From an uncultured Gammaproteobacteria bacterium (GTDB taxonomy: Bacteria; Patescibacteriota; Patescibacteriia; Patescibacteriales; JAGXOH01): a DNA stretch of 64,000 bases. Below the pieces are notes generated by a model, which saw only the letters and a list, made by a program, of their open reading frames with translations, did no database searches and was not told the origin of the DNA. Positions 1 to 44,876 of the stretch are shown piece after piece. Each line of letters starts with the position of its first letter. Position 1 is the first letter of the stretch. Where the stretch lies: the NCBI GenBank assembly GCA_964635515.1, contig CAZWNU010000001.1, positions 5,068 through 69,067 on the forward strand, written 5' to 3'. Made by a program: the position numbers and the translations under genes.

Positions 1-183
1 TACCTCCAGCTCTCCCGGCTCAATATCCATTTTCTCCAGGATGGGCCTGATCAAACTTTCCGGTTGGTTAAGCATAGCCAACAACAGATGGGTGGCCTCA
101 ATGTTTTGCTGGCCGCTTTCTTGGGCTATTACCTGAGAGTTTATAATAGCCTCTTGTGCTTTATTTGTGAATTTATTGAACAT
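1..183 (-). CDS. Clp/Hsp100 ATPase, N-terminal (Clp_N) portion only; the gene continues past the window edge
   Basis: Reverse translation from the ATG at 183-181 gives MFNKFTNKAQEAIINSQVIAQESGQQNIEATHLLLAMLNQPESLIRPILEKMDIEPGELEV, a typical ClpB/ClpC N-domain repeat. Confidence 0.6.
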   Translation of the reverse strand, partial: MFNKFTNKAQEAIINSQVIAQESGQQNIEATHLLLAMLNQPESLIRPILEKMDIEPGELEV

Positions 184-210: not shown

Positions 211-237
211 TTAGCACTCTTACTATTTAAGTGCTAG
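211..237. promoter_or_regulatory. CIRCE-like inverted repeat (candidate HrcA operator) upstream of the edge Clp gene
   Basis: TTAGCACTC-N9-AAGTGCTAG compared with the CIRCE consensus TTAGCACTC-N9-GAGTGCTAA (7/9 match in the right arm). Confidence 0.4.
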
Positions 238-365: not shown

Positions 366-1562
366 ATGAAAAAAATAAATATCTTAGGTGTAAACATTAC
401 TGATCTTAACAAGAAAGAAGTTGTCAAGCAAATTGAGAAAAGCGCTGAAGGCAAAGCAAAGAGCTTATTTGTTGTCACCCCGAATCCGGAGATAATTCTT
501 GAAGCAGAAAAAGATGGAGAATTTTTATTTATTCTAAACCAAGCGGACTTAGCCATTCCGGATGGGGTGGGTTTAAAATTCGCCTCTTGGTTGACTGGCC
601 ACAACCTGGCCAGGATCACCGGTGCAGACCTGACCGAAGAGATATTAAAGATAGCTGAGAGAAAAGGTTTAAGATTAGGGATAATTAAACCTCCTCGAGC
701 CCTATCTGAAAATAAAGAGATCCAAAAAGCGGTAAATAGAAAATTCCCAGAATTGAACTTTTTAATATCAGAATGCTCTTCAGAGGAGGTGGACAATTTC
801 CAAGATCAAAAAATGTTTGATTTCGAACCTGAAATAATACTAAGCACACTAGGAGCTCCTTTTCAAGAAAAATTTATCTTCCATAATTTTAAAAGATTTT
901 CTAAAATTAAACTGGGTATAGGAGTGGGGGGTTCTCTGGATTTTTTGACCGGCAAAGCGCCGCGCGCCCCTAAAACATTAAGGATATTGGGCCTAGAATG
1001 GACTTGGAGGCTTGCTAAACAACCCCGAAGATGGAAACGGATAATTAAAGCTACTCTGGTTTTTCCTTGGAAGTTTCTTAAGTGGCGCTTTTTACTTCCA
1101 TTTTTTTATCGAGATAACTTGATCTGCTTGCTTTACAAGAAAAAAAATGATAATTACAAGGTTTTGGTGGTGGAAAGAAGGGAGGGGTCTGGGAAATGGC
1201 AGATTCCTCAGGGAGGAAAAGATGGTGAAGATCTGGTCACTGCCGGATCCAGAGAGTTAAGGGAAGAACTAAATTGCCACTCTTTTATTCCAATAGCTTC
1301 CTTTAAAAAAATACATAAGTACAGGTTTCCAAGGTCTTATCCCAGACCCTCAAAACATGGGGGATACAAGGGTCAAAAACAAGATCTTTTTATAGCCGAA
1401 TTCCAGGGAAAAGATCCTGATATTAAAATAAATTTTTGGGAACATAAAAATTGGCAATGGGTAGATTACAAAGATCTAGTAAATGTGGTTGATCCCAACA
1501 GGAGAGAGGCTATGAAAAAAATCATTCAAATATTTAAAAAAAATGTTATAAATAAAAATTGA
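366..1562 (+). CDS. WecB/TagA/CpsF-family glycosyltransferase fused to a C-terminal Nudix hydrolase domain
   Basis: The first ~250 aa align along their length with WecB/TagA N-acetylmannosaminyltransferases (ILGVNI..., ADLAIPDGVGL, IGVGGSLDFLTGKAPRAPK, LGLEWTWRL). The C-terminus carries a Nudix box, GGKDGEDLVTAGSRELREEL (E-x7-REUxEE). Confidence 0.7.
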   Translation: MKKINILGVNITDLNKKEVVKQIEKSAEGKAKSLFVVTPNPEIILEAEKDGEFLFILNQADLAIPDGVGLKFASWLTGHNLARITGADLTEEILKIAERKGLRLGIIKPPRALSENKEIQKAVNRKFPELNFLISECSSEEVDNFQDQKMFDFEPEIILSTLGAPFQEKFIFHNFKRFSKIKLGIGVGGSLDFLTGKAPRAPKTLRILGLEWTWRLAKQPRRWKRIIKATLVFPWKFLKWRFLLPFFYRDNLICLLYKKKNDNYKVLVVERREGSGKWQIPQGGKDGEDLVTAGSRELREELNCHSFIPIASFKKIHKYRFPRSYPRPSKHGGYKGQKQDLFIAEFQGKDPDIKINFWEHKNWQWVDYKDLVNVVDPNRREAMKKIIQIFKKNVINKN

Positions 1563-3040: not shown

Positions 3041-3079
3041 ATAAAAAAACAATCCGGATTTTAAATGATCAAGGGTTTG

Positions 3080-3088
3080 TGTTATAAT
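3080..3088 (+). promoter_or_regulatory. Extended -10 promoter (TGtTATAAT) upstream of the small-membrane-protein/Clp operon
   Basis: TG at 3080-3081 and TATAAT at 3083-3088, about 38 nt before the ATG at 3126. Confidence 0.3.
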
Positions 3089-3125: not shown

Positions 3126-3476
3126 ATGGGCAGCCATGCTCTCAAAATTTTTGGCCAAACAATACTGGATATAGCTTACTTCCCCCTTTGGTGGTACTCT
3201 CAAGGATTGTTAAAAGTTCTTAGATTTTTAAAATCTTTTTTGCTTCAAAAAGAAAAAAGTTTAGCCTTTTTAGTTTGGGTAAAGAACATATTTACCCCCA
3301 TGTATGGACAGAGAGATGTCGCCGGATTTCTGATAAGTTTTTTTATGAGGTTGGTGCAAATAATATTCAGAGGCCTTGTATTGCTTTTTTGGCTTGCCTT
3401 TGTCCTAGGGGTCTTATTATTTTATATCCTCCTGCCCCTGATGTTGCTTTACCAAATTATTTACCAAATTATTTAA
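3126..3476 (+). CDS. Small polytopic membrane protein of unknown function, translationally coupled to the downstream Clp-like ATPase
   Basis: 116 aa with 2-3 hydrophobic helices (LVLLFWLAFVLGVLLFYILLPLMLL). Its TGA stop overlaps the ATG at 3478. Confidence 0.45.
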   Translation: MGSHALKIFGQTILDIAYFPLWWYSQGLLKVLRFLKSFLLQKEKSLAFLVWVKNIFTPMYGQRDVAGFLISFFMRLVQIIFRGLVLLFWLAFVLGVLLFYILLPLMLLYQIIYQII

Positions 3477-3477
3477 G

Positions 3478-6237
3478 ATGATCGAAAAAAAAGATGAATT
3501 ACAATTTATAACTTGCCCTGAATGCCAGGGGAGTGGAAGAGGGGAAATGGGGTTTGGCTGTTTTAATTGTCAGGAAATGGGGCAAGGGGTTTTATTTAAG
3601 GGAAGATTCTTATTTTTTGGACCCAAACTTGATATTAAAAAAATAAAATTTCCTTTAATAAAAAACAGGTTCGACAGGATGGTCAATTTTACTTCCTTTT
3701 TTCTCGCTTTCTTAGGCCTCCTGTCTTTGTCTTTTTGGTATTATTTAAATTTCTCTCAATTTCAATTCTGGCAAGATTTTTTATTTTGGCAGTATACCGA
3801 TATTTTGATCTTATTTTTTTGGCTGGGAGCTTTATTTTTCATCTTCGGTATCTACAAAATAATCAAGGAGGGGGATGAGGAGAAAAAGATTTCTGATTTC
3901 AAGGAGGTGGAAGAGAGTTTAGAAAATATTGAAGATTGGGAAGAGATAAAGAAATACAAATACAAATATGATACTGCGGAGGCTTTGAGCAGGGAAAGTT
4001 TGAGAACAATAGCAGAGTCCTATAAAATAGCTAAAAGGTTTAAGCATCAGGAAATAACACCTCTCCATCTTTTCGCCGCTCTAATAATTCAAGATTCTTG
4101 GATGATCGCTCTTTTTGATAGATTAAATATAAATCAACAAGAATTATTTGAAAAAATCGGAAGGCAGTTAAACCGGGAAAAACAATCTCAAAAGAATGCT
4201 CGTCCCTCAAGGTTCAATAAATCGATTAAAAAAATTTTTATCTCTGGTTTTGTGGACGCTTATGAGTTGGGACAAGAGAATGTCAAACCTTTTAATCTAG
4301 TGACTTATTGCACTCGAGAAGATGATTTTCTAAAAGAGCTGCTCCTGGATTTTAAGATTGATGAAAGAAAAATAGAAAATGTTCTGTCTTGGTTCAGGAC
4401 TAATGAAGAAATAATAGAGAATATAAAAACCTATAAAAAGGTTGCCAGATTCAAACCTAAGAGTAATATGGACAGGGCTTATACTTCAGTAGAAACCACC
4501 TTTTTAAATAAGTGTAGTTATGACTTGACCTTGGCAGCTAAGTGGGGTAGATTGGGCTTGTGCGTCTCTAGAGAGAAGGAGATAAATAAAATATTCAATT
4601 CTTTGACTGGTGTTAATAGAGGGGTGGTTTTAGTGGGGCCGGAAGGAGTAGGCAAAAAAACTATTGTCAAAGGAGTGGCCAGGTTGATGGTGAGAGAAAA
4701 AGTCCCTGACTTCTTATGGGACAAGAGGCTGCTAGAGCTAGATGTGGCCAGGTTGCTCAGCGGAGCCACTCCATCTCAATCAGAGGAAAGAATATTAAGA
4801 GTTTTGGATGAAATATTCAGGGCCGGTAATATAGTTTTATATATAAAAAATATTGATAACTTAATAGGAATAAAAGTGGGGGAGGAGGGAGGAATGGATC
4901 TTTCCGAAGCTTTGGTTGACGGGCTGGAAAGGAGAGGTATATATTGCCTGGCCACCACCACTAAAAGCAATTTTTATCAATATGTTGAAAAAAGCGCCAT
5001 AACCGGGAGTATGGCCAAAATAGATGTTTCAGAGCCCGAAGGAGATCAAGCTATCAGAATTATAGAAAGTAAAATAGGCTTGATGGAGGCTAAGTTTAAG
5101 GGAGTGTTCTTTTCCTACAATGCCATAGAATCAGCTATCGAACTGTCCCAGAGATACATCCATGATAAACATTTACCCCAAAAAGCTCTGGAGATTATAG
5201 AGCAAACCGGAATCAGATTATTCAAGTCCAAAAAGAAAAAAGAAAAAGTTCTGTGCAAAAAGAATGATATAGCCCTGACGATCAAGGAAATGACCAATAT
5301 CCCGGTCGATGAAGTGTCAGAGGAGGAAGGGATCAAGCTTCTTGGATTGGAAAAGGAAATACATAAACACATTATAAACCAAAGCGAGGCCGTGAATATG
5401 GTATCTGATAGCCTGAGAAGGGCTAGAGTAGAGTTGAAGGAAGAGAAAAAGACTATATCAAATTTTTTATTTTTAGGACCAACAGGAGTAGGTAAAACTG
5501 AACTGGCCAAAACCGTATCCAAAGTTTATTTAGGAAAAGAGGAGTTTATGATAAGGTTGGACATGAGTGAATATCAGCATGAAGACAGTGTTAAAAAAAT
5601 AATAGGGGACACTAGTGGTAAGAAGGGATATTTGACAGAGGCTGTGAGAAAAAATCCTTTCTCTTTAATACTCCTTGATGAATTTGAAAAAGCTCATCCT
5701 AAGATATTGGATCTCTTTTTACAGGTTACTGATGAGGGCAGACTAACTGACGGTCAGGGAAGAACGGTTGATTTCACCAGTAGCATTATTATAGCCACAT
5801 CAAACATCGGTTCTCGTTTTATTGAAAAGGAAATATCCGTAGGCAAGGAAATCAAGGATATAAAAGAAGTCCTTATAAACGAAAAATTAATAGAAGTTAT
5901 TAAACCGGAATTGATCAATAGGTTTGACGGGGTTATTATATTCAAACCCTTAAGCATGAAGAATGTGGTTGAGATAACCAAATTAATAATAGAAGGAGTC
6001 AGAAAAATGCTTGAAAACAAAAGCATAATTTTAAAAATAGATGAGGCCGGGGTTAGGAAGTTGGCTGAAGAAGGGCATGATCCCAAGTTCGGAGCCAGGC
6101 CCTTAAGGAGATTGATAAAAAAGAAAATAGAAAATGAAATAGCCAAAAAGATATTATCAGGGGAGTTGAGCACAAGAGACACTGTTATCATCAACCATAA
6201 TGTTGAAATAGAAGTCGAAAAGGCTAAAAAATTATAA
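3478..6237 (+). CDS. Membrane-anchored Clp/Hsp100-family AAA+ ATPase with an N-terminal zinc ribbon and a degenerate first nucleotide-binding domain
   Basis: CPECQ...CFNCQ zinc ribbon, then two TM helices, then a Clp_N-like repeat. The first module (D1) has GPEGVGKKT, and the Walker B position reads YIKNID rather than the canonical FIDELH. The second module (D2) is intact: GPTGVGKTE, LILLDEFEKAHP, sensor ATSN and a C-terminal ClpB_D2-small region. Confidence 0.75.
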   Translation: MIEKKDELQFITCPECQGSGRGEMGFGCFNCQEMGQGVLFKGRFLFFGPKLDIKKIKFPLIKNRFDRMVNFTSFFLAFLGLLSLSFWYYLNFSQFQFWQDFLFWQYTDILILFFWLGALFFIFGIYKIIKEGDEEKKISDFKEVEESLENIEDWEEIKKYKYKYDTAEALSRESLRTIAESYKIAKRFKHQEITPLHLFAALIIQDSWMIALFDRLNINQQELFEKIGRQLNREKQSQKNARPSRFNKSIKKIFISGFVDAYELGQENVKPFNLVTYCTREDDFLKELLLDFKIDERKIENVLSWFRTNEEIIENIKTYKKVARFKPKSNMDRAYTSVETTFLNKCSYDLTLAAKWGRLGLCVSREKEINKIFNSLTGVNRGVVLVGPEGVGKKTIVKGVARLMVREKVPDFLWDKRLLELDVARLLSGATPSQSEERILRVLDEIFRAGNIVLYIKNIDNLIGIKVGEEGGMDLSEALVDGLERRGIYCLATTTKSNFYQYVEKSAITGSMAKIDVSEPEGDQAIRIIESKIGLMEAKFKGVFFSYNAIESAIELSQRYIHDKHLPQKALEIIEQTGIRLFKSKKKKEKVLCKKNDIALTIKEMTNIPVDEVSEEEGIKLLGLEKEIHKHIINQSEAVNMVSDSLRRARVELKEEKKTISNFLFLGPTGVGKTELAKTVSKVYLGKEEFMIRLDMSEYQHEDSVKKIIGDTSGKKGYLTEAVRKNPFSLILLDEFEKAHPKILDLFLQVTDEGRLTDGQGRTVDFTSSIIIATSNIGSRFIEKEISVGKEIKDIKEVLINEKLIEVIKPELINRFDGVIIFKPLSMKNVVEITKLIIEGVRKMLENKSIILKIDEAGVRKLAEEGHDPKFGARPLRRLIKKKIENEIAKKILSGELSTRDTVIINHNVEIEVEKAKKL

Positions 6238-6241
6238 AAAA

Positions 6242-6268
6242 AGGATGCTTTTTGCCAAAGCATCCTGC
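6242..6268 (-). terminator. Stem-loop terminator (10-bp stem) with its U-run on the minus strand
   Basis: AGGATGCTTT-ttgcc-AAAGCATCCT, preceded on the + strand by an A-run (which is a T-run on the minus strand). Confidence 0.4.
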
Positions 6269-6273
6269 AAATC

Positions 6274-6561
6274 TTAACCCGTTGCCATTTCCTTTCTTTC
6301 TTGTTCTATAAATCTTTCCAAAATTATGACGGGTTCAAGTCCCAATTTTTTACATCTTTTTTGGAAAAAAGGACAGCTGAAAAAATGGGCACAAAATTTG
6401 GCATAAATTATTGTCTTTTTTTGATTTGCCAAATCCTGGTCTTGAAGATTGTCTAAATCTTCCATTTTTTGCAGAAAAGACGCAACCCTTTTTTTCCTTA
6501 ACCTTTTTTTCCCATTCAAATTGATCACTGCTCCTCCTCCTACTCCTGTTAGTGGTTTCAA
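6274..6561 (-). CDS. Small hypothetical Cys-containing protein; start uncertain (TTG at 6561 or ATG near 6464)
   Basis: A 95-aa ORF in a gap between genes that is otherwise 340 bp long, ending just before a minus-oriented hairpin terminator. C-x6-C-x6-C spacing; no recognisable family. Confidence 0.25.
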   Translation of the reverse strand: MKPLTGVGGGAVINLNGKKRLRKKRVASFLQKMEDLDNLQDQDLANQKKTIIYAKFCAHFFSCPFFQKRCKKLGLEPVIILERFIEQERKEMATG

Positions 6562-7658
6562 TTAAAAAGAACCTTATGATTGAGAACTATTATATCATAA
6601 TTTTCCTATTTTGTGCAAGTCTAACCGCTGTTTTGACATTTTTTGTTATTAAGCTGGCCTGGAAATGGGATATTGTAGACCACCCTTCTGAAAAAAGAAA
6701 AATACATGAAAAGCCCACTCCCTTACTGGGAGGGGTGGCCATATTCTTGGCTTTTTTCTTAAGTCTTTTTCTGTTGCGCGAAAACTTAATTATAGGGGAT
6801 TTGGAATATCATCACTGGCTGGGATTTTTTGCCGGAGCTGTTTTTTTAATTATTGGGGGTTTTTTGGATGATAAGTATAAACTTAGGCCATCCAGACAAG
6901 TTATTTGGCCTATTTTAGCCGTACTTTGCGTTATTGCCGGAGGAGTGGGGATTACTAAGATATCCAACCCCTTTAATGACTTGTTTTATCTTGATACCGT
7001 AACCCTGACTATTTTTAAGTGGGGGGACTCGACATATTATCTTACCCTGCTTAGAGACGCCTTTACTTTTCTTTGGTTGATGGCTATGATGTATACTACC
7101 AAACTTCTGGACGGAGTTGATGGTCTGGTCTCTGGGGTAGTGGCTATTGGAGGATTTATCATTTTTCTCTTCACTACCACCACCCAATATTATCAACCTG
7201 ATATAGCCCTTGCCTCCCTGATCCTTATGGCTTGTTGTTTGGGTTTTTTGATTTTCAACTGGAGTCCGGCTAAAATATTTTTAGGTGAGGGAGGCTCCTT
7301 ATTACTTGGATATCTTCTGGGAGTGCTGGCTATTATCTCAGGTGGAAAAATAGCTATAGCCTTTTTAGTCTTAGGACTCCCTGTTTTAGATCTACTGTGG
7401 ACCATAATTAGAAGACTCTGGAGCGGTCAAAACCCCTTTAAGACAGCTGATAAAAAACATCTTCATCATAAATTATTGAACTGGGGTTTGAGCCCGGAGC
7501 AAACTTCTCTAGTTTTTTATTTCTTTGCTTTAATCTTTGGTGTCAGCGCCTTATTTCTTCAAACCACCGGAAAAATATTGGCTATACTAGGATTGATTCT
7601 TCTAATGTTTTTCTTAGTAACCGGACTTAAGCGCTTGGGGAGTAAGGACAGAGTTTAG
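6552..7658 (+). CDS. Polyprenyl-phosphate N-acetylhexosamine-1-phosphate transferase (WecA/MraY family, GT4 clan)
   Basis: HPSEKRKIHEKPTPLLGGVAIF, DDKYKL, DGVDGLVSG and ten or so TM helices. Alternative ATG start at 6576. Confidence 0.8.
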   Translation: MVSIKKNLMIENYYIIIFLFCASLTAVLTFFVIKLAWKWDIVDHPSEKRKIHEKPTPLLGGVAIFLAFFLSLFLLRENLIIGDLEYHHWLGFFAGAVFLIIGGFLDDKYKLRPSRQVIWPILAVLCVIAGGVGITKISNPFNDLFYLDTVTLTIFKWGDSTYYLTLLRDAFTFLWLMAMMYTTKLLDGVDGLVSGVVAIGGFIIFLFTTTTQYYQPDIALASLILMACCLGFLIFNWSPAKIFLGEGGSLLLGYLLGVLAIISGGKIAIAFLVLGLPVLDLLWTIIRRLWSGQNPFKTADKKHLHHKLLNWGLSPEQTSLVFYFFALIFGVSALFLQTTGKILAILGLILLMFFLVTGLKRLGSKDRV

Positions 7659-8113: not shown

Positions 8114-9160
8114 ATGGAAGATGTATTAAAATACTTCAGAGAGGCCATAAAAAAAGGTGCTTCTGATCTTCATTTGGTGGCGGACAGTAAACCTGCTATA
8201 AGACTGGAGGGAGGCTTAATTAGAATAGGAGAGAGGCCCATTATTCATGAAGAATTCATGGAGCAAGTAAAAAAACTTATAACCAAAGAGCAGCTGGAGA
8301 GCTTAATGAAGGAAAAAGAACTGGATATGTCTTTGAAAGTAGGTGACCAACATTTTAGAGTTAATTTTCATTTTCAAAAAAGAAAATTGGGAATGGCCGC
8401 CAGAGTGATGCCTAAAAGCCCTCCAGGGCCAGAGGAAATAGGATTTGATGAGACACTATACGGATTAACCCATTTGAATGATGGTCTGGTTCTGGTAACC
8501 GGTCCGGCCGGGTCGGGAAAATCGACCACATTGGCCACAATGCTCAATATTATTAACTTAGAAAGGAGGAGTCATATAATTACCATAGAGGACCCTATTG
8601 AATACCATTTCGAGAATATACAATCAATTGTGGAGCAGAGAGAACTTAATTTTGATACTCATAGTTTTGCCTCGGCCTTAAAGCACTCTTTGCGACAAGA
8701 CCCCAATGTTATTATGGTCGGAGAAATGAGGGATCAAGAGACCATAACAACCGCCCTGCAAGCAGCAGAAACAGGTCATCTGGTTTTTTCTACTCTTCAT
8801 ACCTCCACCGCCCTGGAGACCGTTTCTAGAATTGTTGACATGTTTCCGGCAAGTTCCCATAAAAGAATTTTGAATCAACTCTCTTCTTGTCTTAGAGCGG
8901 TAATATCCCAACAATTACTTCCCAGAAAAAAAGGCGGCTTGGTGGTAGCAAGAGAAATAATGATAAATAACCCGGCCATATCCAACCTAATAAGGGCGGA
9001 TAAGCTAGAGCAGATCTACAGCGCTATAGAAACGGGTAGTCAGGACGGGATGATAACCATGAACAAAGCTATTGAAAGCTTGTATGAAAAAGATGTTATC
9101 AGTGAAAAAACGGCTGAATCCAAAAAAAGAGAAAACAGCAGTTCCTCTACTTATTATTAA
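8114..9160 (+). CDS. pilT: Type IV pilus retraction ATPase PilT (PilT/PilU family)
   Basis: GPAGSGKSTT Walker A, IITIEDPIEY, DPNVIMVGEMRD, TGHLVFSTLHT. Confidence 0.85.
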   Translation: MEDVLKYFREAIKKGASDLHLVADSKPAIRLEGGLIRIGERPIIHEEFMEQVKKLITKEQLESLMKEKELDMSLKVGDQHFRVNFHFQKRKLGMAARVMPKSPPGPEEIGFDETLYGLTHLNDGLVLVTGPAGSGKSTTLATMLNIINLERRSHIITIEDPIEYHFENIQSIVEQRELNFDTHSFASALKHSLRQDPNVIMVGEMRDQETITTALQAAETGHLVFSTLHTSTALETVSRIVDMFPASSHKRILNQLSSCLRAVISQQLLPRKKGGLVVAREIMINNPAISNLIRADKLEQIYSAIETGSQDGMITMNKAIESLYEKDVISEKTAESKKRENSSSSTYY

Positions 9161-20415: not shown

Positions 20416-21522
20416 ATGTTTAAAAAAATATTCATATACCTTAAAAATTTTGATTGGATTTTATTTACCTCTGTCATCCTTTTGACTTGCTTCGGACTGA
20501 TCGAAATCTATAGCATTTCCCTGGGAAGGGATGTGTCTGAGCTGGTTATATTCAAAAGACAGGTGTTTTTTGTTGTTATTGGAGTTATTTTGGTCTTTGT
20601 TTTTTCCTTTTTAGACCATCAGTTTTTTAAAGACTATGCTAATTGGCTCTATTTTTTAGGGATTATCTTATTGACATCTGTTTTGTTTTTTGGAACCACA
20701 TATAGCCATGCTACTAGGTGGCTTGATTTAGGATACTTCAGCTTTCAACCGGTGGAGATAGCAAAAATTATTATTATAATTTTTTTAGCCAAACTTTTTT
20801 CTTCAAAAAAAATAGAGAAAGATAATTGGCGTCAACTAGTTTGGTCCGGATCATTGATCTTAATACCTTTTCTTCTGGTTTTGGGTCAGCCGGATCTCGG
20901 CTCTGCTATTCTCTTCTTTGTCATCTGGCTGACTTTAGTTGTTGTATCCGGATTCAACAAAAAATATTTAGTTATTATATTTTTGTTAGGGGTGGTCGCG
21001 TTTGCGGGTATGTGGAACTTTTATTTTGTAGACTATCAAAAACAAAGAATTCTAACTTTTATAAACCCTTCTGAAAGTTCCCTTGATCATCGCCACAATG
21101 TAGACCAGTCAATTATTGCTGTAGGGGCCGGAGGGCTGACCGGAAGTGGGGTTGGTTTTGGCTCCCAATCACAGTTAAAGTTTTTACCTGAAGTAGAAAA
21201 TGACTTTATTTTCGCAGTTATAGCAGAGGAGTTGGGTTTTATGGGGGTTAGTCTTTTACTTATATTTTTTAGTTTATTCTTTTATAGATGTCTGGTAAAT
21301 TTAAAAAAAATCAACAATGATTTCGGAATTTTTTTAATTTTAGGCTCGGTGGGCTTGATTTTTACTCAAATGTTTATTAATATAGGTATGAACATGGGTA
21401 TCTTCCCGGTTATAGGCCTCCCCCTGCCTTTTGTTAGCTATGGAGGCAGTGCCCTGATATCGATGTTTGTTTTAGTAGGCATCATTCAAAATATTATCAT
21501 TAAATCAAAAATTAATTATTAA
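20416..21522 (+). CDS. SEDS-family cell-wall polymerase (FtsW/RodA)
   Basis: QPVEIAKIIIIIFLA, DFIFAVIAEELGFMGV and about 10 TM helices. Confidence 0.85.
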   Translation: MFKKIFIYLKNFDWILFTSVILLTCFGLIEIYSISLGRDVSELVIFKRQVFFVVIGVILVFVFSFLDHQFFKDYANWLYFLGIILLTSVLFFGTTYSHATRWLDLGYFSFQPVEIAKIIIIIFLAKLFSSKKIEKDNWRQLVWSGSLILIPFLLVLGQPDLGSAILFFVIWLTLVVVSGFNKKYLVIIFLLGVVAFAGMWNFYFVDYQKQRILTFINPSESSLDHRHNVDQSIIAVGAGGLTGSGVGFGSQSQLKFLPEVENDFIFAVIAEELGFMGVSLLLIFFSLFFYRCLVNLKKINNDFGIFLILGSVGLIFTQMFINIGMNMGIFPVIGLPLPFVSYGGSALISMFVLVGIIQNIIIKSKINY

Positions 21523-25884: not shown

Positions 25885-27330
25885 ATGAAAATAAACAATA
25901 TTGCTAAAAACACTTCTTATCTAACTTCCGCTCTGGTGATTCAAAAGGTAATTTCCTTTGCCTATTTTACTTTATTGGCAAGAAATCTTGGTCCAGAGAA
26001 TATGGGAATGTATTATTTTGCTATCTCCTTCACCACCGTTCTGGCTGTGTTCATAGACTTGGGTCTTATAAATATTTTGATGCGGGAGGTGGCTAAAACC
26101 AAAGAAAGGGCCCAAGAGCTACTGGGCAGTGTCTTGGCTATAAAACTACCCTTAGCCCTATTAACCCTAGGATCGGCTATTTTGATAATTCATCTACTTA
26201 ACTATCCCAGCCTGGTCGTTCACCTTGTATATCTTTCTTGTATATGTATGATCCTGGATTCCTTTACTACAAGCTTTTTTGCTGTCATCAGAGGTTTTCA
26301 TAATTTAATCTATGAGAGCATAGGATCAGTGTTGTTCCAGTTAATAGTAATGATATTAGGGCTAGTAGCTGTTTATAGTGGCATGAGCCTGCTCTGGGTA
26401 ATGGGCGCTTTGGTGGCTGCCAGTATTTTTAATTTTTCCTATTCTTCTCTGGTTCTCTGGAAGAAATTAGATTTAGTAATAAAGCCTGTTTATAATCAAA
26501 GATTAATATTATCCTTAAGTAGGCTTGCTATTCCTTTCGGCCTGTTTGCTCTATTTCAAAGGTTCTATATGCACTTTGATTCGGTTTTACTCTCCATTAT
26601 AGCCGGGGATAGATATGTAGGCTACTACCAAGTAGCTTTTAAAATAATCTTCGCTCTTCAGTTCCTGCCCCTAGCCTTTGTAGCCTCCTTGTATCCGGCC
26701 ATGAGTTATTACTGGATTAATAATCGGGAACAATTGACTATAACCTTTGAAAGAGCAATGAAATACTTAATGATAATATCTATCCCGATTAGTACCGGGG
26801 TAATAATTTTGTCCGACAAGATAATAAATATATTCGGTAAAGAATTTTCCGGAGCCACGCTTCCCATGCAAATAACTATTTTGGCGCTACTTTTTATTTT
26901 CATTAATTTTCCAATCGGCTCTCTTTTAAATGCTTGCGATAGACAGAAATATAACACAATAAACATGGGGATAGCGGTTACGCTGAGCATAACACTTAAC
27001 CTTATCCTGATTTCAAAATTTCAGGCCGTAGGGGCAGGGGTCACTGTTTTAGTAACTAATTTTTTAATGACTATCTTGGGCCTTTACTGGGCCGGGAAAA
27101 TAATAAACTACGACAAAAAAATGATGTTAATAAATTTTATTAAAATTATAATATCCGGCCTGGCCATGGGTGTTTTAGTTTTTGAATTGCAAAAATATCT
27201 AAATATATTTTTAATCATACCCCTTGGAGGGATTTTCTATTTCCTTGTTCTGTATTTGGTCAGGGGCTATACCAAAGAAGACATCAAAAGCATAACTTCG
27301 TCCTTTTTAGCTAAAAAACAAAAGGGTTAG
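25885..27330 (+). CDS. Polysaccharide flippase-like MOP-superfamily transporter (Wzx-like)
   Basis: About 14 TM helices, with polysaccharide-biosynthesis-protein (PF01943-like) topology and composition. Confidence 0.7.
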   Translation: MKINNIAKNTSYLTSALVIQKVISFAYFTLLARNLGPENMGMYYFAISFTTVLAVFIDLGLINILMREVAKTKERAQELLGSVLAIKLPLALLTLGSAILIIHLLNYPSLVVHLVYLSCICMILDSFTTSFFAVIRGFHNLIYESIGSVLFQLIVMILGLVAVYSGMSLLWVMGALVAASIFNFSYSSLVLWKKLDLVIKPVYNQRLILSLSRLAIPFGLFALFQRFYMHFDSVLLSIIAGDRYVGYYQVAFKIIFALQFLPLAFVASLYPAMSYYWINNREQLTITFERAMKYLMIISIPISTGVIILSDKIINIFGKEFSGATLPMQITILALLFIFINFPIGSLLNACDRQKYNTINMGIAVTLSITLNLILISKFQAVGAGVTVLVTNFLMTILGLYWAGKIINYDKKMMLINFIKIIISGLAMGVLVFELQKYLNIFLIIPLGGIFYFLVLYLVRGYTKEDIKSITSSFLAKKQKG

Positions 27331-28197: not shown

Positions 28198-28632
28198 ATG
28201 AAATTAACTAAAATTTTTCTAATTTTTATTATTTCTTTAATAATTTCGGGCTGCGGACCAGGGGCGGAAAAGGTATTAATAAAAATAAATGATCAAAAAA
28301 TAGAAGCAGAGATAGCTCAAACCCCAAGAGAAAAATACAAAGGCTTGAGCAAAAGAGAAGATCTTTGTTATAATTGTGGGATGCTGTTTCTTTTTTCAGA
28401 AAAAAGAAAAGCGACCATTGTTATGCGAGATATGAATTTTCCTCTAGATATTTTATGGATAAAAGATCAAAGAATTGTTGGGATAGACAAGAACGCGCCC
28501 CCGGAGGGAAGAAATCCTAAAACAAAATATCAAAGCTCACAACCAGTAGACCAAGTCTTGGAACTTAACGGAGGTTTCTGTGAAAAACATGATATAAAAG
28601 CAGGGGACAGTATTAAAATAATATCAAATTAA
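28198..28632 (+). CDS. DUF192 (COG1430) lipoprotein
   Basis: Lipobox (ISGCG) and the DUF192 core (MLFLFSE...IVMRDMNFPLDILWI). Confidence 0.65.
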   Translation: MKLTKIFLIFIISLIISGCGPGAEKVLIKINDQKIEAEIAQTPREKYKGLSKREDLCYNCGMLFLFSEKRKATIVMRDMNFPLDILWIKDQRIVGIDKNAPPEGRNPKTKYQSSQPVDQVLELNGGFCEKHDIKAGDSIKIISN

Positions 28633-30161
28633 TGAATAAAATAATCACTTCCAATTTTAAATTTATTCTTATCGCCCTCTTGTTGATAGAAAGTTTCTCT
28701 TTTCTGGGAAATTATTTTTCTTTTCTAGGAAATTATTTTTTTATAATTGTTTCTTTAATAGTACTATTCCTAACCTTAAAAGACATCCGATACGGTCTAT
28801 GGATAGTATTAGCCGAACTTCTTATCGGATCCCAAGGTTATTTATTCTCTCTCAATTTAGCGGGAACTTCTATTTCTATTAGAATGTCGATATGGTTTAT
28901 AGTATTGGCGGTTTGGTCATCTAAAATTCTAACTAATTTTTATAAAAAACCCCGAGGGGAGAGAACCTTTCCTAACATTAAATTATTCAAATCTTCTTAC
29001 TTTTCCTACCTTCTTATCCTATTCTTTTTTGTAGCCTGGGGAGGTATTAATGGCTTTATAAACAACAACTCTTTACACGAAATTCTATTTGACATCAACA
29101 GCTGGTTTTATTTGGCCCTAATATTTCCTTTGTATGAAGTGGCCTGGAAGGAAAACTTCTTTAAACCATTAGCGGAGATACTGTTAGCTTGCGCCATCTG
29201 GATCAGCCTAAAATCTTTGTTTATATTGTTTGTATTCTCTCATAATATTCACTCTTGGATGGGACCTTTGTACTCTTGGGTGAGAGATACGGGGGTGGGG
29301 GAGATAACCGCCATGGACGGTGGCTTCACCAGAGTGTTCTTTCAATCTCATATTTTTATTGTTATAGCCATATTTTTGGGAATTATACTTATAAACAAAG
29401 TTTTGACCTCAAAAAAAGAACTTTCCGGAGAAGATAAGAAATGGATACTTCTCTATTCCGCTATCCTTATTCTTTTTTCCTCGGTTGTAATTATTAGTTT
29501 TTCCAGAAGTTTTTGGATAGGTTCTATGGCTGGAATATTGTTCTTGTTAGCTATAGTTCAAAAAAAATACGGTTTTAAAAATTTAATTTTAAACATCTTA
29601 GGTATTTTTTCAATGGTTATACTCAGCCTAGGCTTGGTAGCGGCCATAATCAACATTCCTGTAATAGGAGAAAAAACTGACCTTAGAACATCAGAAAGCG
29701 TACGTGACAGAGCCAGAGATGTGTCTGGAGAGGCGGCTGTTTCTTCTCGCTGGAACCTACTTCCCAAAATGTGGGAGGAGATAAAAAGTGACCCTGTTTT
29801 GGGAAAGGGCTTTGGAACCACAATCACTTATATATCAAGTGACCCCAGAGCTTTACAAAGATCAGCTGAAGGCGAGTATACAACCTATGCCTTTGAGTGG
29901 GGTTGGCTTGACATATGGCTAAAGATCGGCTTTCTTGGACTTCTTTGCTACTTATTCCTTATAGCAAAAATGATCTTTGATGGCCTGGCCAAGCCTAAAT
30001 TGTTCAAGTCAACACTGGGCAACTGCCTGATAATAGGTTTAATGGTGTTCATAGTAGTCCATTTTTTTACACCCTACCTAAACCATCCTCTGGGCTTTGG
30101 GTTCTTAATGTTATCAATTATAGCCTTGAACAAATTAGAGGAAGACGGTATTATTACTTGA
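28632..30161 (+). CDS. O-antigen ligase/polymerase-like (Wzy_C-type) polytopic membrane protein
   Basis: At least 10 TM helices with a large periplasmic loop (residues ~345-410). Carries an in-frame 24-bp tandem duplication (FSFLGNYF x2). Confidence 0.4.
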   Translation: MNKIITSNFKFILIALLLIESFSFLGNYFSFLGNYFFIIVSLIVLFLTLKDIRYGLWIVLAELLIGSQGYLFSLNLAGTSISIRMSIWFIVLAVWSSKILTNFYKKPRGERTFPNIKLFKSSYFSYLLILFFFVAWGGINGFINNNSLHEILFDINSWFYLALIFPLYEVAWKENFFKPLAEILLACAIWISLKSLFILFVFSHNIHSWMGPLYSWVRDTGVGEITAMDGGFTRVFFQSHIFIVIAIFLGIILINKVLTSKKELSGEDKKWILLYSAILILFSSVVIISFSRSFWIGSMAGILFLLAIVQKKYGFKNLILNILGIFSMVILSLGLVAAIINIPVIGEKTDLRTSESVRDRARDVSGEAAVSSRWNLLPKMWEEIKSDPVLGKGFGTTITYISSDPRALQRSAEGEYTTYAFEWGWLDIWLKIGFLGLLCYLFLIAKMIFDGLAKPKLFKSTLGNCLIIGLMVFIVVHFFTPYLNHPLGFGFLMLSIIALNKLEEDGIIT

Positions 30162-38140: not shown

Positions 38141-39076
38141 ATGAAATATCCTAAAATAGCCCTACTCAGTGGGGGATTGTCCAAAGAAAGGGAAGTTTCC
38201 TTAAAAAGTGGCAAGAAAATTTATGAAACCCTGAAAAAAAAATATAGGGTATTTCAGTATGATCCTAAAAAAGATATGGAAAAACTTTGGCGAGATGCTT
38301 TATCCAAAAAAATCGACCTGGTTTTTCCGGCCCTTCATGGTTCTTATGGAGAAGATGGTAAACTCCAAGGGTTTTTAGAAACCCTGGGGGTCCCTTATAT
38401 ATTTTCAGGCGTTTTGGCCAGTTCCCTGGCCATGGATAAACACAGATCAAAAATTCTGATTAGTAACAAGGGGATTCCGGTAGCTAAGGATTTGATATTA
38501 AGAAAAAAGAGCGAAGAAAATATCCCAAACCTAGAATTTCCCTTGGTTATCAAGCCTGTAAACTCTGGATCTTCTGTGGGTATAAGTATAACAAAAAACA
38601 AACAGCAGTTGAAAAAGGGGATTGAAGAGGCTTTTTCTCATGATGAGGAGATTATGATAGAGGAATATATTAAAGGCAGGGAATTAACAGTAACTATTTT
38701 AGGGAATGAGGAGCCTCGGGCCTTGCCGGTGCTTGAAATAAAACCTAAGAATTCGGAATGGTTCGACTATGAGTCTAAATACACACCCGGGGCGACTGAA
38801 GAGATCTGTCCAGCCAAAATACCCCAGAAAATCGAAAAAAAGATTCAAGGTTATGCCAAAGAAATCTTTCTTGCCATAGGTTGTCGTGATTTAGCAAGAG
38901 TTGATTTTATCTGGGACCAAAATTCCGGAAAAATATACTTTTTAGAGATCAATACCATTCCCGGAATGACCGGGACTTCATTGGTCCCACAGACGGCTCG
39001 GGCCGACGGCCTGAACTTTGAGAGATTACTAGACAAGCTAATAGAAATGGGAAATTCAAGAAGAAAACATGTTTGA
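38141..39076 (+). CDS. ddl: D-alanine--D-alanine ligase
   Basis: KIALLSGGLSKEREVSLKSG and an ATP-grasp fold (ELTVTIL, EINTIPGMT). Confidence 0.85.
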   Translation: MKYPKIALLSGGLSKEREVSLKSGKKIYETLKKKYRVFQYDPKKDMEKLWRDALSKKIDLVFPALHGSYGEDGKLQGFLETLGVPYIFSGVLASSLAMDKHRSKILISNKGIPVAKDLILRKKSEENIPNLEFPLVIKPVNSGSSVGISITKNKQQLKKGIEEAFSHDEEIMIEEYIKGRELTVTILGNEEPRALPVLEIKPKNSEWFDYESKYTPGATEEICPAKIPQKIEKKIQGYAKEIFLAIGCRDLARVDFIWDQNSGKIYFLEINTIPGMTGTSLVPQTARADGLNFERLLDKLIEMGNSRRKHV

Positions 39077-43555: not shown

Positions 43556-44788
43556 TTAAGGTAGATAATTCATAGGATTAACAGGAATTCCGTCCTTCCT
43601 GATCTCGAAATGAAGATGAGGGCCTGTGCTCAAGTGACCCGACCCGGCCGTCCCCGGAGTACCTCCGCTTAGAGCTATCTCCTGACCCTGGGTGACGTAC
43701 TGATCAGCTTCCACAAGGGGTTGGGATATATGACCGTAAACAGTGGCTAAACCGTCTCCGTGAATAAGCATTATATAGGCATAATTAGAACTATTAGGAT
43801 TAAATCTAACTTGGCCCACATATCCGGAAGCTGAAGCTCTTATGGTGGTTCCTTGAGCGGCTCTTATATCTATACCAGGATGTTCAAATAAATGACGAAA
43901 GGGGTAATTCGGATCATGATAACCTGCTGTTATGTGCCTACTTGGTACCGGCCAAATAAATTCCTGGTCACCAAAATCCAGCCCCCCCTCTGACTCCTCT
44001 TCCAGTTTGGCCCTTATTGCCGACTCCAGAGAAGCTATTTCATTAGAAACTTGCTGTCTTTGTTGCTTGGCTTTTTCTAAAAGATCCTGGTACTCCTCCT
44101 CTGAATTACTAGTCTCTTCCAGTAAAAACTTTCTCCTTTCCTGACTGGCTATAAGCTCTTCTTTCTGGGCATTCAACTCTTCTTCAAGCTCAACCAATTC
44201 TTTATTCTTCTCGACCAAGGAAGCTCTTTTTTCTTGAAGTTCTTCTCTGTAATTCTCTAGATCTCTAACACCTATTTCGATTTCTTCGTTTATATCTTGT
44301 AAGTATTTTAACTGATTAATAAAATCGGAAAAAGAATCGTTTAAAAGAAGTATTTCCAAAGTATCAGCCTTGTTCTGTTTATATATCAAATTAATTATAT
44401 TTGATATATGGTCCTTTTTCCTCTCTATCTCATCCTCCTTTTCCCTGATCTCGAAATTGGTTCTTCTGGTCTCTAAACTAACCCTACTGATCTGATTCTC
44501 AGTGTTCTTTATCTCCAGCTCCGTCCTGGCGAGTCGGCTGTCTAAGAGGTCAAGTTGGTTTTGGAGGCTGTCTCTTTCCTCTTGAAGCTCCTCTATTCTT
44601 TCCGAATACTTGCTTCTTTGCTCCTGTATCCTTTCCATTTCTTTTTTCTTTGACTCAATCTCCTCATTTAAAAAGTCTAATTCCCTGCTAGATTGAGAGC
44701 TGCTATGACTAACATCTGACAAACCGAAAAATAAAAAAAGAAACAACAAAATTGTTACTAAAGATTTAAATTTCCCTCTCTTTGTCAT
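43556..44788 (-). CDS. M23-family peptidoglycan metalloendopeptidase with a long coiled-coil (EnvC-like)
   Basis: Signal peptide, about 250 aa of coiled-coil, then an M23 domain (HPGIDI, HLHFEIRKDG). The start is set at the internal Met (MTKRG...) and not the track's 44854. Confidence 0.8.
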   Translation of the reverse strand: MTKRGKFKSLVTILLFLFLFFGLSDVSHSSSQSSRELDFLNEEIESKKKEMERIQEQRSKYSERIEELQEERDSLQNQLDLLDSRLARTELEIKNTENQISRVSLETRRTNFEIREKEDEIERKKDHISNIINLIYKQNKADTLEILLLNDSFSDFINQLKYLQDINEEIEIGVRDLENYREELQEKRASLVEKNKELVELEEELNAQKEELIASQERRKFLLEETSNSEEEYQDLLEKAKQQRQQVSNEIASLESAIRAKLEEESEGGLDFGDQEFIWPVPSRHITAGYHDPNYPFRHLFEHPGIDIRAAQGTTIRASASGYVGQVRFNPNSSNYAYIMLIHGDGLATVYGHISQPLVEADQYVTQGQEIALSGGTPGTAGSGHLSTGPHLHFEIRKDGIPVNPMNYLP

Positions 44789-44847
44789 ATTATTACAAGT
44801 CAAATAAAAATTAAATAACTTAAATTCATTATAGCATTTTTGGTATA

Positions 44848-44876
44848 TTGACACAACATGATTTATTTGATATTAT
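44848..44876 (+). promoter_or_regulatory. Sigma-70-like promoter (TTGACA-17-TATTAT) for rpmA
   Basis: TTGACA at 44848-44853 and TATTAT at 44871-44876. Confidence 0.5.

Follow-up and report, generated by a model that had tools for sequence, protein, structure and literature searches.

What does a Clp/Hsp100 ATPase do when it is built into a membrane? The question is raised by a locus in a 64,000-nucleotide (nt) stretch of Patescibacteria DNA (contig CAZWNU010000001.1 of assembly GCA_964635515.1; this whole stretch is called the window below), in which the gene for a 919-amino-acid (919-aa) protein directly follows that for a 116-aa protein. To our knowledge, the characterized bacterial class-I Hsp100s (ClpA, ClpB, ClpC, ClpE, ClpL, ClpG, and ClpV) are all soluble and thread their substrates by means of aromatic pore loops. 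An earlier note, made from the letters alone, had taken the larger protein for a membrane-associated unfoldase or disaggregase, or an anchor for ClpP, with a dead first AAA+ module (D1) and a fully canonical second one (D2). We found that the 919-aa protein derives from the class-I Clp/Hsp100 ATPases, is integral to the membrane, and is specific to Patescibacteria, and that its gene is the middle one of a conserved trio, consisting of the small protein, the ATPase, and a gene for a WecA/TagO-like transferase.

A membrane-anchored derivative of the Clp/Hsp100 ATPases

Both open reading frames (ORFs) were found exactly where the earlier note had placed them, with a single nucleotide between the stop codon of the first and the start codon of the second (TAA-G-ATG); the coordinates of all features are collected in Table 1. 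In Pfam, the 919-aa protein matched Clp_N (PF02861, residues 182 to 222, a weak match of 24 bits), AAA (383 to 494), AAA_lid_9 (523 to 598), AAA_2 (659 to 817), and ClpB_D2-small (PF10431, 825 to 905). An AlphaFold2 (AF2) model computed from 114 homologous sequences, with a predicted local distance difference test score (pLDDT) of 88.1 and a predicted template modeling score of 0.80, showed an eight-helix N-domain and two AAA+ modules, and Foldseek aligned it to full-length ClpC over more than 800 columns. Pfam, AF2, and the Foldseek matches to ClpC and ClpB thus agree on the full two-tier Clp/Hsp100 architecture that had been proposed.

In a search of 5.8 billion proteins we kept at least 120 homologs, on which the family counts below are based. 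They were 45 to 67% identical to the 919-aa protein and covered at least 96% of it, mostly about 100%; their lengths were mostly 904 to 935 aa, besides a small number of N-terminally truncated or partial sequences (876 to 898 aa) and of longer ones (946 and 1,018 aa). Where the homologs were named, the names were Patescibacteria, Falkowbacteria, or Parcubacteria, which supports the lineage proposed for this DNA, and the annotation was the generic "Clp ATP-binding subunit" or "AAA family ATPase". A scan of species-level genomes with patterns taken from the D1 alignment gave at least 489 matching stretches; since one gene can hold up to two patterns, the family is, by this sequence measure, present in at least a few hundred species-level genomes. 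Among the matches listed, the closest relatives (at most 79% identity) came from third-party-annotation "binchicken" metagenome-assembled genomes (MAGs) titled "uncultured Gammaproteobacteria", and one came from a "Candidatus Nanoarchaeia archaeon". Because all other named matches are Patescibacteria, these titles are probably placeholders or the result of misbinning.

That at least 120 homologs are nearly full length shows that the N-terminal region belongs to the gene and that the family is real, which settles the concern, raised with the original proposal, that the first 130 residues were a miscalled upstream gene. Nothing was found in favor of an artifact of this kind, and the weak Clp_N score is the lone hint of a decaying pseudogene; we rejected both as next to impossible, given a single uninterrupted ORF, the identity and coverage of the homologs, an AF2 model that is confident across the domain junctions, and strong column conservation in every domain.

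The N terminus carries four cysteines (C13, C16, C28, and C31), which are kept in 117 of the 120 homologs. They had been described as a CxxC-x13-CxxC zinc ribbon; the conserved cysteines are there, but their spacing is CxxC-x11-CxxC and the family consensus, CPxCxGxG-x7-CxNCxGxG, is a pair of DnaJ-type CXXCXGXG motifs and no generic ribbon (the second motif of the window protein itself reads CFNCQEMG, with E for G). When 23 members were compared with Pfam, weak matches to PF00684 appeared in 18 (best E value, 2e-4), to Anti-TRAP in 12, and to the BSD2 cysteine-rich domain in 2, all below the gathering thresholds; the window's 919-aa protein was not among the PF00684 and Anti-TRAP matches reported. 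The family profile matched Anti-TRAP (3lcz, E value of 5e-4) and the DnaJ cysteine-rich region (DnaJ CR; 1exk, E value of 0.024) in the PDB, as well as two more domains of the latter type, 6jzb and 1nlt, again below threshold. Because all of these matches are subthreshold, we hold the assignment at "DnaJ-CR-like" and speak of a putative zinc finger.

Behind the cysteines lie two hydrophobic segments (residues ~68 to 92 and ~101 to 130), found in 108 of the 120 homologs at a Kyte-Doolittle threshold of 1.6, and AF2 placed helices at residues 53 to 90 and 109 to 135. The mean number of lysines plus arginines was 4.6 before the first transmembrane (TM) helix, 0.9 between the helices, and 5.5 after the second, as the positive-inside rule would have it. 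From this distribution the hairpin is predicted to be N-in/C-in, which would place both the zinc finger and the ATPase in the cytoplasm; hydropathy and charge together bear out the two TM helices and the membrane tethering first proposed. Between the N-domain and D1 we found a linker with the family consensus ARFKPxxxMDRAYTAVATPxLN. It had the lowest column entropy of the segments analyzed (0.76, compared with 0.88 for D2), and the AF2 pLDDT fell below 50 at residues 326 to 334 within it. Low entropy combined with low pLDDT gives this linker, at the level of sequence and model, the hallmark of a linear motif conserved for docking.

The degeneracy of D1 depends on the register of the alignment, which was examined with HMMER against Bacillus subtilis ClpC. 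There was no gap around the Walker motifs: LVGPEGVGKKTIV stood opposite LIGEPGVGKTAIA, so that GVGK-K faced GVGK-T, and LYIKNIDNLIG faced LFIDELHTLIG. The Walker A sequence GPEGVGKKT and the Walker B sequence YIKNID are thus degenerate, as the earlier note had read them, and not intact motifs seen in the wrong register. The degeneracy is family-wide. The residue after the P-loop lysine was K in 48 of the 120 homologs, N in 33, and R in 25 (T in 2 and S in 6), and the second residue of Walker B was N in 94, D in 23, and E in none. In the pore-loop region SGAT-PSQSE faced AGTKYRGEFE of ClpC, KYRGEF having become xPAxA in the family, whose D1 pore loop has no tyrosine; in the Arg-finger region ITGSMAK faced LERRFQP, and the second Arg-finger position was V, A, or I throughout. 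The same differences recurred in a MAFFT alignment with the ClpB of the same genome, which reads GTGKT, KFRGEF, VDELH, and ERRF. G387, G390, G392, and K393 are invariant, the mean majority frequency of D1 is 0.69, and the module is more conserved than the N-domain. With its invariant P-loop residues and the constraint on the module, D1 is, on the evidence of sequence, a maintained pseudo-ATPase, in which nucleotide binding is probably retained. The earlier idea that D1 is reduced to a structural ring is supported as to the loss of catalysis and probable as to the structural role.

D2, in contrast, has kept its catalytic site: GPTGVGKT, LLLDEFEKA, the TSN sensor 1, the NRFD Arg finger, and the GAR sensor 2 are invariant or nearly so in the 120 homologs. 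To this extent D2 is canonical, as had been claimed, but its GYVG pore-1 loop is missing. In place of GSPPGYVGYDEGGQLTE in ClpC and GSPPGYVGHDDAGQLTE in the local ClpB, the family shows the pattern G-D-x-x-G-x-x-G-Y-LTE, shorter by five residues; the deletion was uniform in 40 sequences inspected row by row, and the column counts were consistent with it across the 120. HMMER put the position of the gripping tyrosine at K, T, V, or A, and in an alternative alignment the YVGYE stretch was cleanly deleted. The tyrosine that follows, Y718, begins a helix in the AF2 model and so sits at a helix cap, away from the loop tip.

The proposal of an anchor for ClpP was checked at the docking loop of D2 and found no support there. 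The tripeptide [ILV]-G-[FL] was not found in the family, in which this position reads K/A-G-T/A/V; VGK replaces the VGF of ClpC, and the family's loop falls 7 residues short of that of ClpC (...YVGFNVQDETQNH...). HMMER, MAFFT, and AF2 also revealed no counterpart of the M-domain, whether residues 402 to 446 of ClpC or the ~125-residue insertion of ClpB. Having no ClpP loop, no M-domain, and no aromatic pore loops, the 919-aa protein is, judged by its sequence, not built for ClpP docking, for M-domain-mediated drive by Hsp70, or for the usual grip on a polypeptide.

The gene trio, its variants, and its surroundings

The 116-aa protein has a cytoplasmic helical N-terminal part with the motifs YFPLWWY and NIFxPMYGQxD and, by hydropathy, a single C-terminal TM segment (residues ~83 to 112). 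Because only its last ~30 residues are hydrophobic enough to span a membrane, the protein looks tail-anchored. Its AF2 model (pLDDT, 93.6) consists of helices at residues 2 to 46, 48 to 53, and 65 to 115. We found 137 homologs of about 120 aa each, all hypothetical proteins of Patescibacteria, and in these the small protein was always free-standing and never fused. It matched nothing in Pfam or NCBIfam, its family profile matched no PDB sequence, and Foldseek returned only chance helical matches from the PDB (E values above 1).

On six long metagenomic contigs with homologs of the ATPase, the small protein was encoded directly upstream in all six (47 to 56% identity, gaps of 0 to 222 nt) and a Glycos_transf_4 (GT4) gene lay downstream in all six. 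The survey of co-occurrence that the earlier note had called for was run on 80 loci from GTDB species representatives, 72 of them testable upstream and 68 downstream. The small protein was upstream of the ATPase gene in 69 of the 72, and a GT4 gene followed on the same strand in 62 of the 68, often 4 to 100 nt past the stop codon; the other neighbors varied between loci. The small membrane protein is thus a genuine conserved partner, as proposed, and the ATPase gene is the middle gene of a conserved trio. A promoter-like site upstream of the small gene matched the extended −10 pattern described for it.

In NCBIfam the GT4 protein of the window scored 107 bits with WecA (TIGR02380; cutoff, 326) and 72 bits with MraY, both under the cutoff, and its PDB matches were distant ones to MraY (E value of ~1e-6). 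An identity as MraY was considered and set aside for a WecA-like one, the higher of two subcutoff scores. Just past the ATPase stop codon lies a perfect 10-bp hairpin (AGGATGCTTT-loop-AAAGCATCCT, positions 6242 to 6266) flanked by an A run and a T run, which was scored as a minus-strand terminator. Perhaps it acts in both directions and parts the ATPase gene from the GT4 gene in this genome, whereas in many others the two lie within 4 to 100 nt of each other. A minus-strand ORF between the two genes (positions 6274 to 6561) was not conserved among the six loci, and we left it out of the system.

Searching 1.84 billion proteins with a profile of the zinc-finger and TM module yielded 323 cluster representatives. 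Here we recognized a subfamily without D2, of at least 10 clusters, whose members are 588 to 631 aa long and end with ...VP[YF]TK[IL]L, precisely where D1 would pass into D2. Left in them are the zinc finger, the TM hairpin, and the N-domain, along with a D1 that has degenerated still further. A GT4 ortholog directly follows in three of four testable cases (336 to 369 bits to the GT4 protein of the window), and neither the small protein nor a separate D2 gene was found nearby. One such gene stands in a GT4-L21-RecR-YbaB-DnaB context that it shares with full-length genes and directly downstream of dnaK...dnaJ (as in entries L093 and L094); given the shared context, the D2-less gene in this orthologous position is an ortholog that has lost its motor. 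We considered whether matches of ~600 aa were fragments from contig ends or halves of a split gene and rejected this for the subfamily, since about 10 share the end motif, no D2 gene is nearby, and the position is orthologous; several other short matches do look like fragments.

In one MAG the ATPase and the GT4 protein form a single polypeptide (P0385), which may be an assembly artifact. It lacks the Cys4 finger, has a canonical GKT in its D1 Walker A motif, and is missing the first TM helix of the GT4 part. WecA has its N terminus outside; if the GT4 protein shares this topology, a fusion without the first helix would be topologically consistent.

At the left edge of the window, the canonical Clp gene that had been placed behind a CIRCE-like operator (controlling inverted repeat of chaperone expression) proved to be clpB, with a full-length M-domain and all canonical motifs intact, and the repeat lies at the expected site. 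It follows that the 919-aa protein is a paralog of the cell's ClpB and not its sole Hsp100, as the earlier note had argued. The repeat suggests control of clpB by HrcA in this organism. The ClpB itself has an insertion of ~13 residues, with S-I-G-F-D-D exactly at the ClpP-docking position of ClpA and ClpC. A ClpB that carries an IGF loop by nature would be like the engineered BAP variant, and this one may dock ClpP.

Two genes upstream of the ATPase gene lies an ORF for a TagA/TarA-type transferase fused to a NUDIX hydrolase, which overlaps the TTG start codon of gltX by 4 nt. Further genes of the window encode envelope and surface proteins (a PilT-family ATPase, RodA, a Wzx-like flippase, an O-antigen-ligase-like Wzy_C protein, a D-Ala-D-Ala ligase, and an M23 peptidase) beside the housekeeping genes gyrB, prfA, lysS, serS, and pyrG and those for enolase, PGK, and PGM, a mix that is typical of a small Patescibacteria genome.

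Table 1. Features of the window and of related loci (window positions unless a locus entry is named)
Feature	Position	Strand	Basis or remark
Promoter-like site, extended −10 (TTTAAA-17-TGnTATAAT), 5' of the 116-aa gene	3060..3088	+	Consensus scan, 10/12 + TG; putative
Gene for the 116-aa protein	3126..3476	+	ORF list
Gene for the 919-aa membrane-anchored Clp/Hsp100 derivative	3478..6237	+	ORF, Pfam, NCBIfam, homologs, AF2, Foldseek
Putative DnaJ-CR/Anti-TRAP-type zinc finger, residues ~10-46	3505..3615	+	Cys conservation, profile matches
TM hairpin: TM1 ~68-90, short outer loop with conserved FW, TM2 ~107-129	3679..3864	+	Hydropathy, K/R pattern, AF2
Clp_N-type N-domain, residues 172-324, eight helices	3991..4449	+	Pfam PF02861, AF2, Foldseek
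N-D1 linker motif, predicted flexible, residues 325-345	4450..4512	+	Column entropy, AF2 pLDDT
D1 AAA+ module, catalytically degenerate	4513..5277	+	Alignments, counts in 120 homologs
D1 Walker A, GPEGVGKKT	4636-4662	+	
D1 Walker B, VLYIKN	4834-4851	+	
D2 AAA+ module, catalytic motifs intact (GPTGVGKT, LLLDEFE, TSN, NRFD)	5305..5943	+	Alignments, counts, AF2
D2 pore-1 replacement, GDTSGKKGY (for GxPPGYVGYxxGGQ)	5605-5631	+	
D2-small domain with sensor-2 GAR (R874)	5944..6237	+	PF10431, residues 825-905; GAR invariant
WecA/TagO-like polyprenyl-phosphate N-acetylhexosamine-1-phosphate transferase (GT4/MraY superfamily)	6552..7658; gene-caller start 6576	+	PF00953
ClpB, canonical	1..183; full gene, L001 58..2706	−	882 aa; TIGR03346, 1196 bits
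CIRCE-like inverted repeat, TTAGCACTC-N9-AAGTGCTAG	211..237		Upstream of minus-strand clpB; 7/9 complementary to the consensus half-site
WecG/TagA/TarA-type glycosyltransferase (residues 2-228) fused to NUDIX hydrolase (248-395)	366..1562		Single ORF
Six envelope/surface genes, ordered as in the text	8114..9160; 20416..21522; 25885..27330; 28632..30161; 38141..39076; 43556..44854		
D2-less genes	L087 2894..4717; L090 1470..3272; L093 4001..5896		GT4 ortholog follows
ATPase-GT4 fusion P0385, 1231 aa	L091 4001..7696		Uninterrupted ORF; one MAG; small protein upstream

Possible roles at the membrane

Taken together, these results suggest that the family is probably a new kind of envelope-linked remodeling machine and no normal unfoldase. 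The reading we favor, tentatively and at a little under an even chance, is that of a ClpP-independent, probably nonthreading membrane AAA+ partner or regulator of a glycan-initiating transferase. The protein would be tethered to the membrane as a ring, with D1 binding nucleotide but not hydrolyzing it and serving as the tier for assembly, or scaffold, and with D2 as the sole motor. Since aromatic pore loops are absent from both rings, D2 would drive a conformational switch or local remodeling, by analogy with what has been proposed for Torsins, rather than processive threading, and it would do so independently of ClpP and without Hsp70 coupling of the ClpB kind. Synteny points to the adjacent WecA/TagO-like protein, the putative starter of lipid-linked envelope glycan synthesis, as the likely partner or client. 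Because the D2-less orthologs keep their GT4 neighbor and the two proteins are fused in one genome, the link would be carried by the part made up of the zinc finger, the TM hairpin, the N-domain, and D1, with the tail-anchored 116-aa protein as a cofactor restricted to the form that contains D2.

The GT4 linkage, together with the fusion and the existence of D2-less orthologs, favors a role in envelope glycans over one in general proteostasis, as does the context, the window also encoding a TagA/TarA-like transferase, a Wzx-like flippase, and a Wzy_C protein. In a bolder form, which is possible although we doubt it, a nonthreading AAA+ switch with a tail-anchored cofactor would control, through physical binding, the WecA/TagO-type enzyme by which lipid carrier is committed to the synthesis of an envelope glycan. 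If so, the Torsin/cofactor principle would have a counterpart in bacteria and cell-envelope initiation would be regulated in a new way, with some lineages retaining only a motorless scaffold.

Several observations weigh against the reading we favor. The link to the GT4 protein consists of gene order and a single fusion from one MAG; 6 of the 68 testable loci, and one D2-less locus as well, have no GT4 gene downstream. In the window the GT4 gene begins 315 to 339 nt downstream, depending on the start (6552 or 6576), past a hairpin, and it may have its own promoter. The D1 pore loop of ClpE is nonaromatic too, with Ile194 (PMC13125188), so a loop of this kind in D1 is in itself not unusual. Finally, Y718 is kept in 111 of the 120 homologs beside the shortened D2 loop, and HMMER pairs it with the second tyrosine of GYVGY; residual threading through D2 by way of Y718 may occur.

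The same tyrosine belongs to the case for a general membrane-proximal unfoldase, disaggregase, or extractase, in which D2 would pull clients through the channel, the zinc finger and N-domain would capture them, and the GT4 neighbor would be incidental. We consider this rather unlikely, though it has a complete and invariant D2 catalytic set with its D2-small domain in its favor, along with two modules (Clp_N and a DnaJ-type zinc finger) that bind clients in other chaperones, anchoring by two TM helices as in FtsH, and a D2-less ortholog that adjoins dnaK/dnaJ. Neither pore-1 loop, however, has the canonical aromatic-hydrophobic pair, that of D2 is shortened by its five residues, and AF2 sets Y718 at the start of a helix. 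A pure unfoldase role does not predict orthologs that persist at the same locus without the D2 motor, and the nearly universal GT4 neighbor and the fusion argue for a specific partner. Of the unfoldase or disaggregase first proposed, then, the tethering to the membrane stands, but a classical unfoldase is doubtful in a protein with neither aromatic pore-1 loops nor an M-domain.

The protein might instead be mostly a structural pseudoenzyme, a scaffold that arranges the glycan-initiation machinery or gives it its place at the membrane, with D2 as a nucleotide-dependent switch for assembly that does no mechanical work. That D1 is already a pseudo-ATPase, that the D2-less clade keeps the GT4 linkage, and that the most conserved segment analyzed is a flexible linker, as is typical of a docking site, all fit this view. 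Against it, only the short N-D1 linker surpasses D2 in conservation, and the hydrolysis residues of D2, among them the Walker B glutamate, sensor 1, Arg finger, and sensor 2, are all invariant in the 120 homologs, a sequence pattern that argues for real turnover of ATP wherever D2 is kept; on balance we think such a scaffold unlikely. A membrane anchor or unfoldase for the ClpP peptidase, making a membrane protease like ClpAP or ClpCP, is highly improbable. The best matches in sequence and fold are ClpC and ClpC1, which are ClpP partners, but the docking tripeptide is replaced and its loop shortened, the pore loops for feeding ClpP are missing, and it is the neighboring ClpB that has a SIGF insertion at this position.

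Comparison with known systems

By fold and domain order the 919-aa protein lies within the Clp/Hsp100 superfamily: ClpC, ClpB, and ClpA have the same succession of N-domain, D1 (AAA plus AAA_lid_9), D2 (AAA_2), and D2-small domain. Its best sequence matches in the PDB were ClpC (398 bits), ClpB (391 bits), ClpE (29hb, 365 bits), and ClpA (287 bits), and the Foldseek TM-score, normalized to the target, was ~0.8 over the two AAA+ modules. Yet by the features that define them it is not a ClpA, ClpB, ClpC, or ClpE. It differs from the first three by its TM hairpin, its zinc finger, the catalytic losses in D1, and the absence of aromatic pore-1 loops; the hallmarks of class-I Hsp100s that the family lacks are an active D1 site (GKT, hhhhDE, and Arg finger) and the D2 GYVG loop. 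ClpB has a long coiled-coil M-domain, which is absent here; ClpC has a short M-domain and a [VL]GF ClpP loop, neither of which is present; and ClpA likewise has no M-domain but, unlike the 919-aa protein, has an IG[LF] docking loop. ClpE, from Firmicutes, is likewise a class-I Hsp100 with an N-terminal Cys4 module, one that binds zinc. As a soluble protein with an M-domain, both rings active, and Tyr526 in a pore loop, it is also a partner of ClpP (PMC13125188), and none of these traits is shared by the 919-aa protein.

The NCBIfam matches (ClpB, ClpA, ClpG, ClpK, and ClpV) were all far below the equivalog cutoffs, with Clp scores of 450 to 510 bits against cutoffs of 993 to 1,232 (ClpB, TIGR03346, 509.5 against 1,232.1; ClpA, TIGR02639, 450 against 993). 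No Pfam or NCBIfam model fits, and we found no description of a membrane-anchored Clp/Hsp100, or of one from the candidate phyla radiation, in the literature covered, outside which most subscription journals lay; this agrees with the earlier note, to which no described family with this domain order was known. Being membrane-integral, with one dead ring, no threading loops, and an intact D2 ATPase site, the family puts to the test the extent to which an Hsp100 scaffold lends itself to new uses. Because Patescibacteria genomes are small, a 2.8-kb gene that is retained in them is likely to be important, and its fixed pairing with GT4 points to a control step in the envelope biogenesis of episymbionts, whose surfaces mediate attachment to the host.

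Parts of the arrangement have counterparts elsewhere. In DnaJ CR, Anti-TRAP, and BSD2, paired CXXCXGXG motifs form one zinc center, as they putatively do here; DnaJ has two such centers, whereas this family has one, fused to a membrane hairpin and an Hsp100. FtsH, too, is an AAA+ ring kept at the membrane, with two TM helices in each protomer, but the 919-aa protein is a double ring from another AAA+ clade, with no pore-loop aromatic residue and no protease domain, and Pfam and NCBIfam found neither an M41 nor any other peptidase domain in it. In NSF and Pex1/Pex6, one tier binds nucleotide for assembly and the other does the work; these are of the classical AAA clade, keep the pore loops in their active ring, and thread their substrates. 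Control of a committed envelope enzyme by an AAA+ protein is known from FtsH-LapB-LpxC, in which LapB is a membrane-anchored zinc-finger adaptor. MurAA and GlmS are under Clp-dependent control in Bacillus (PMC5746743).

A possible parallel in mechanism is with the Torsins. The Walker A motif of these eukaryotic relatives of Hsp100 D2 ends with GKN, and a Torsin-like GKN occurs in 33 of the 120 D1 sequences of the family. Torsins are Hsp100 related and membrane associated and have no aromatic pore loops, and a nonthreading mode of action has been proposed for them (PMC5425593). They consist of a single AAA+ module, are luminal, have no Arg finger of their own, and need LAP1 or LULL1, whereas D2 of the family has its own Arg finger and a full catalytic set. 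The likeness is thus an analogy of mechanism and not a matter of family membership. As such, the family offers a tractable bacterial analog for the still unexplained mechanism of Torsins.

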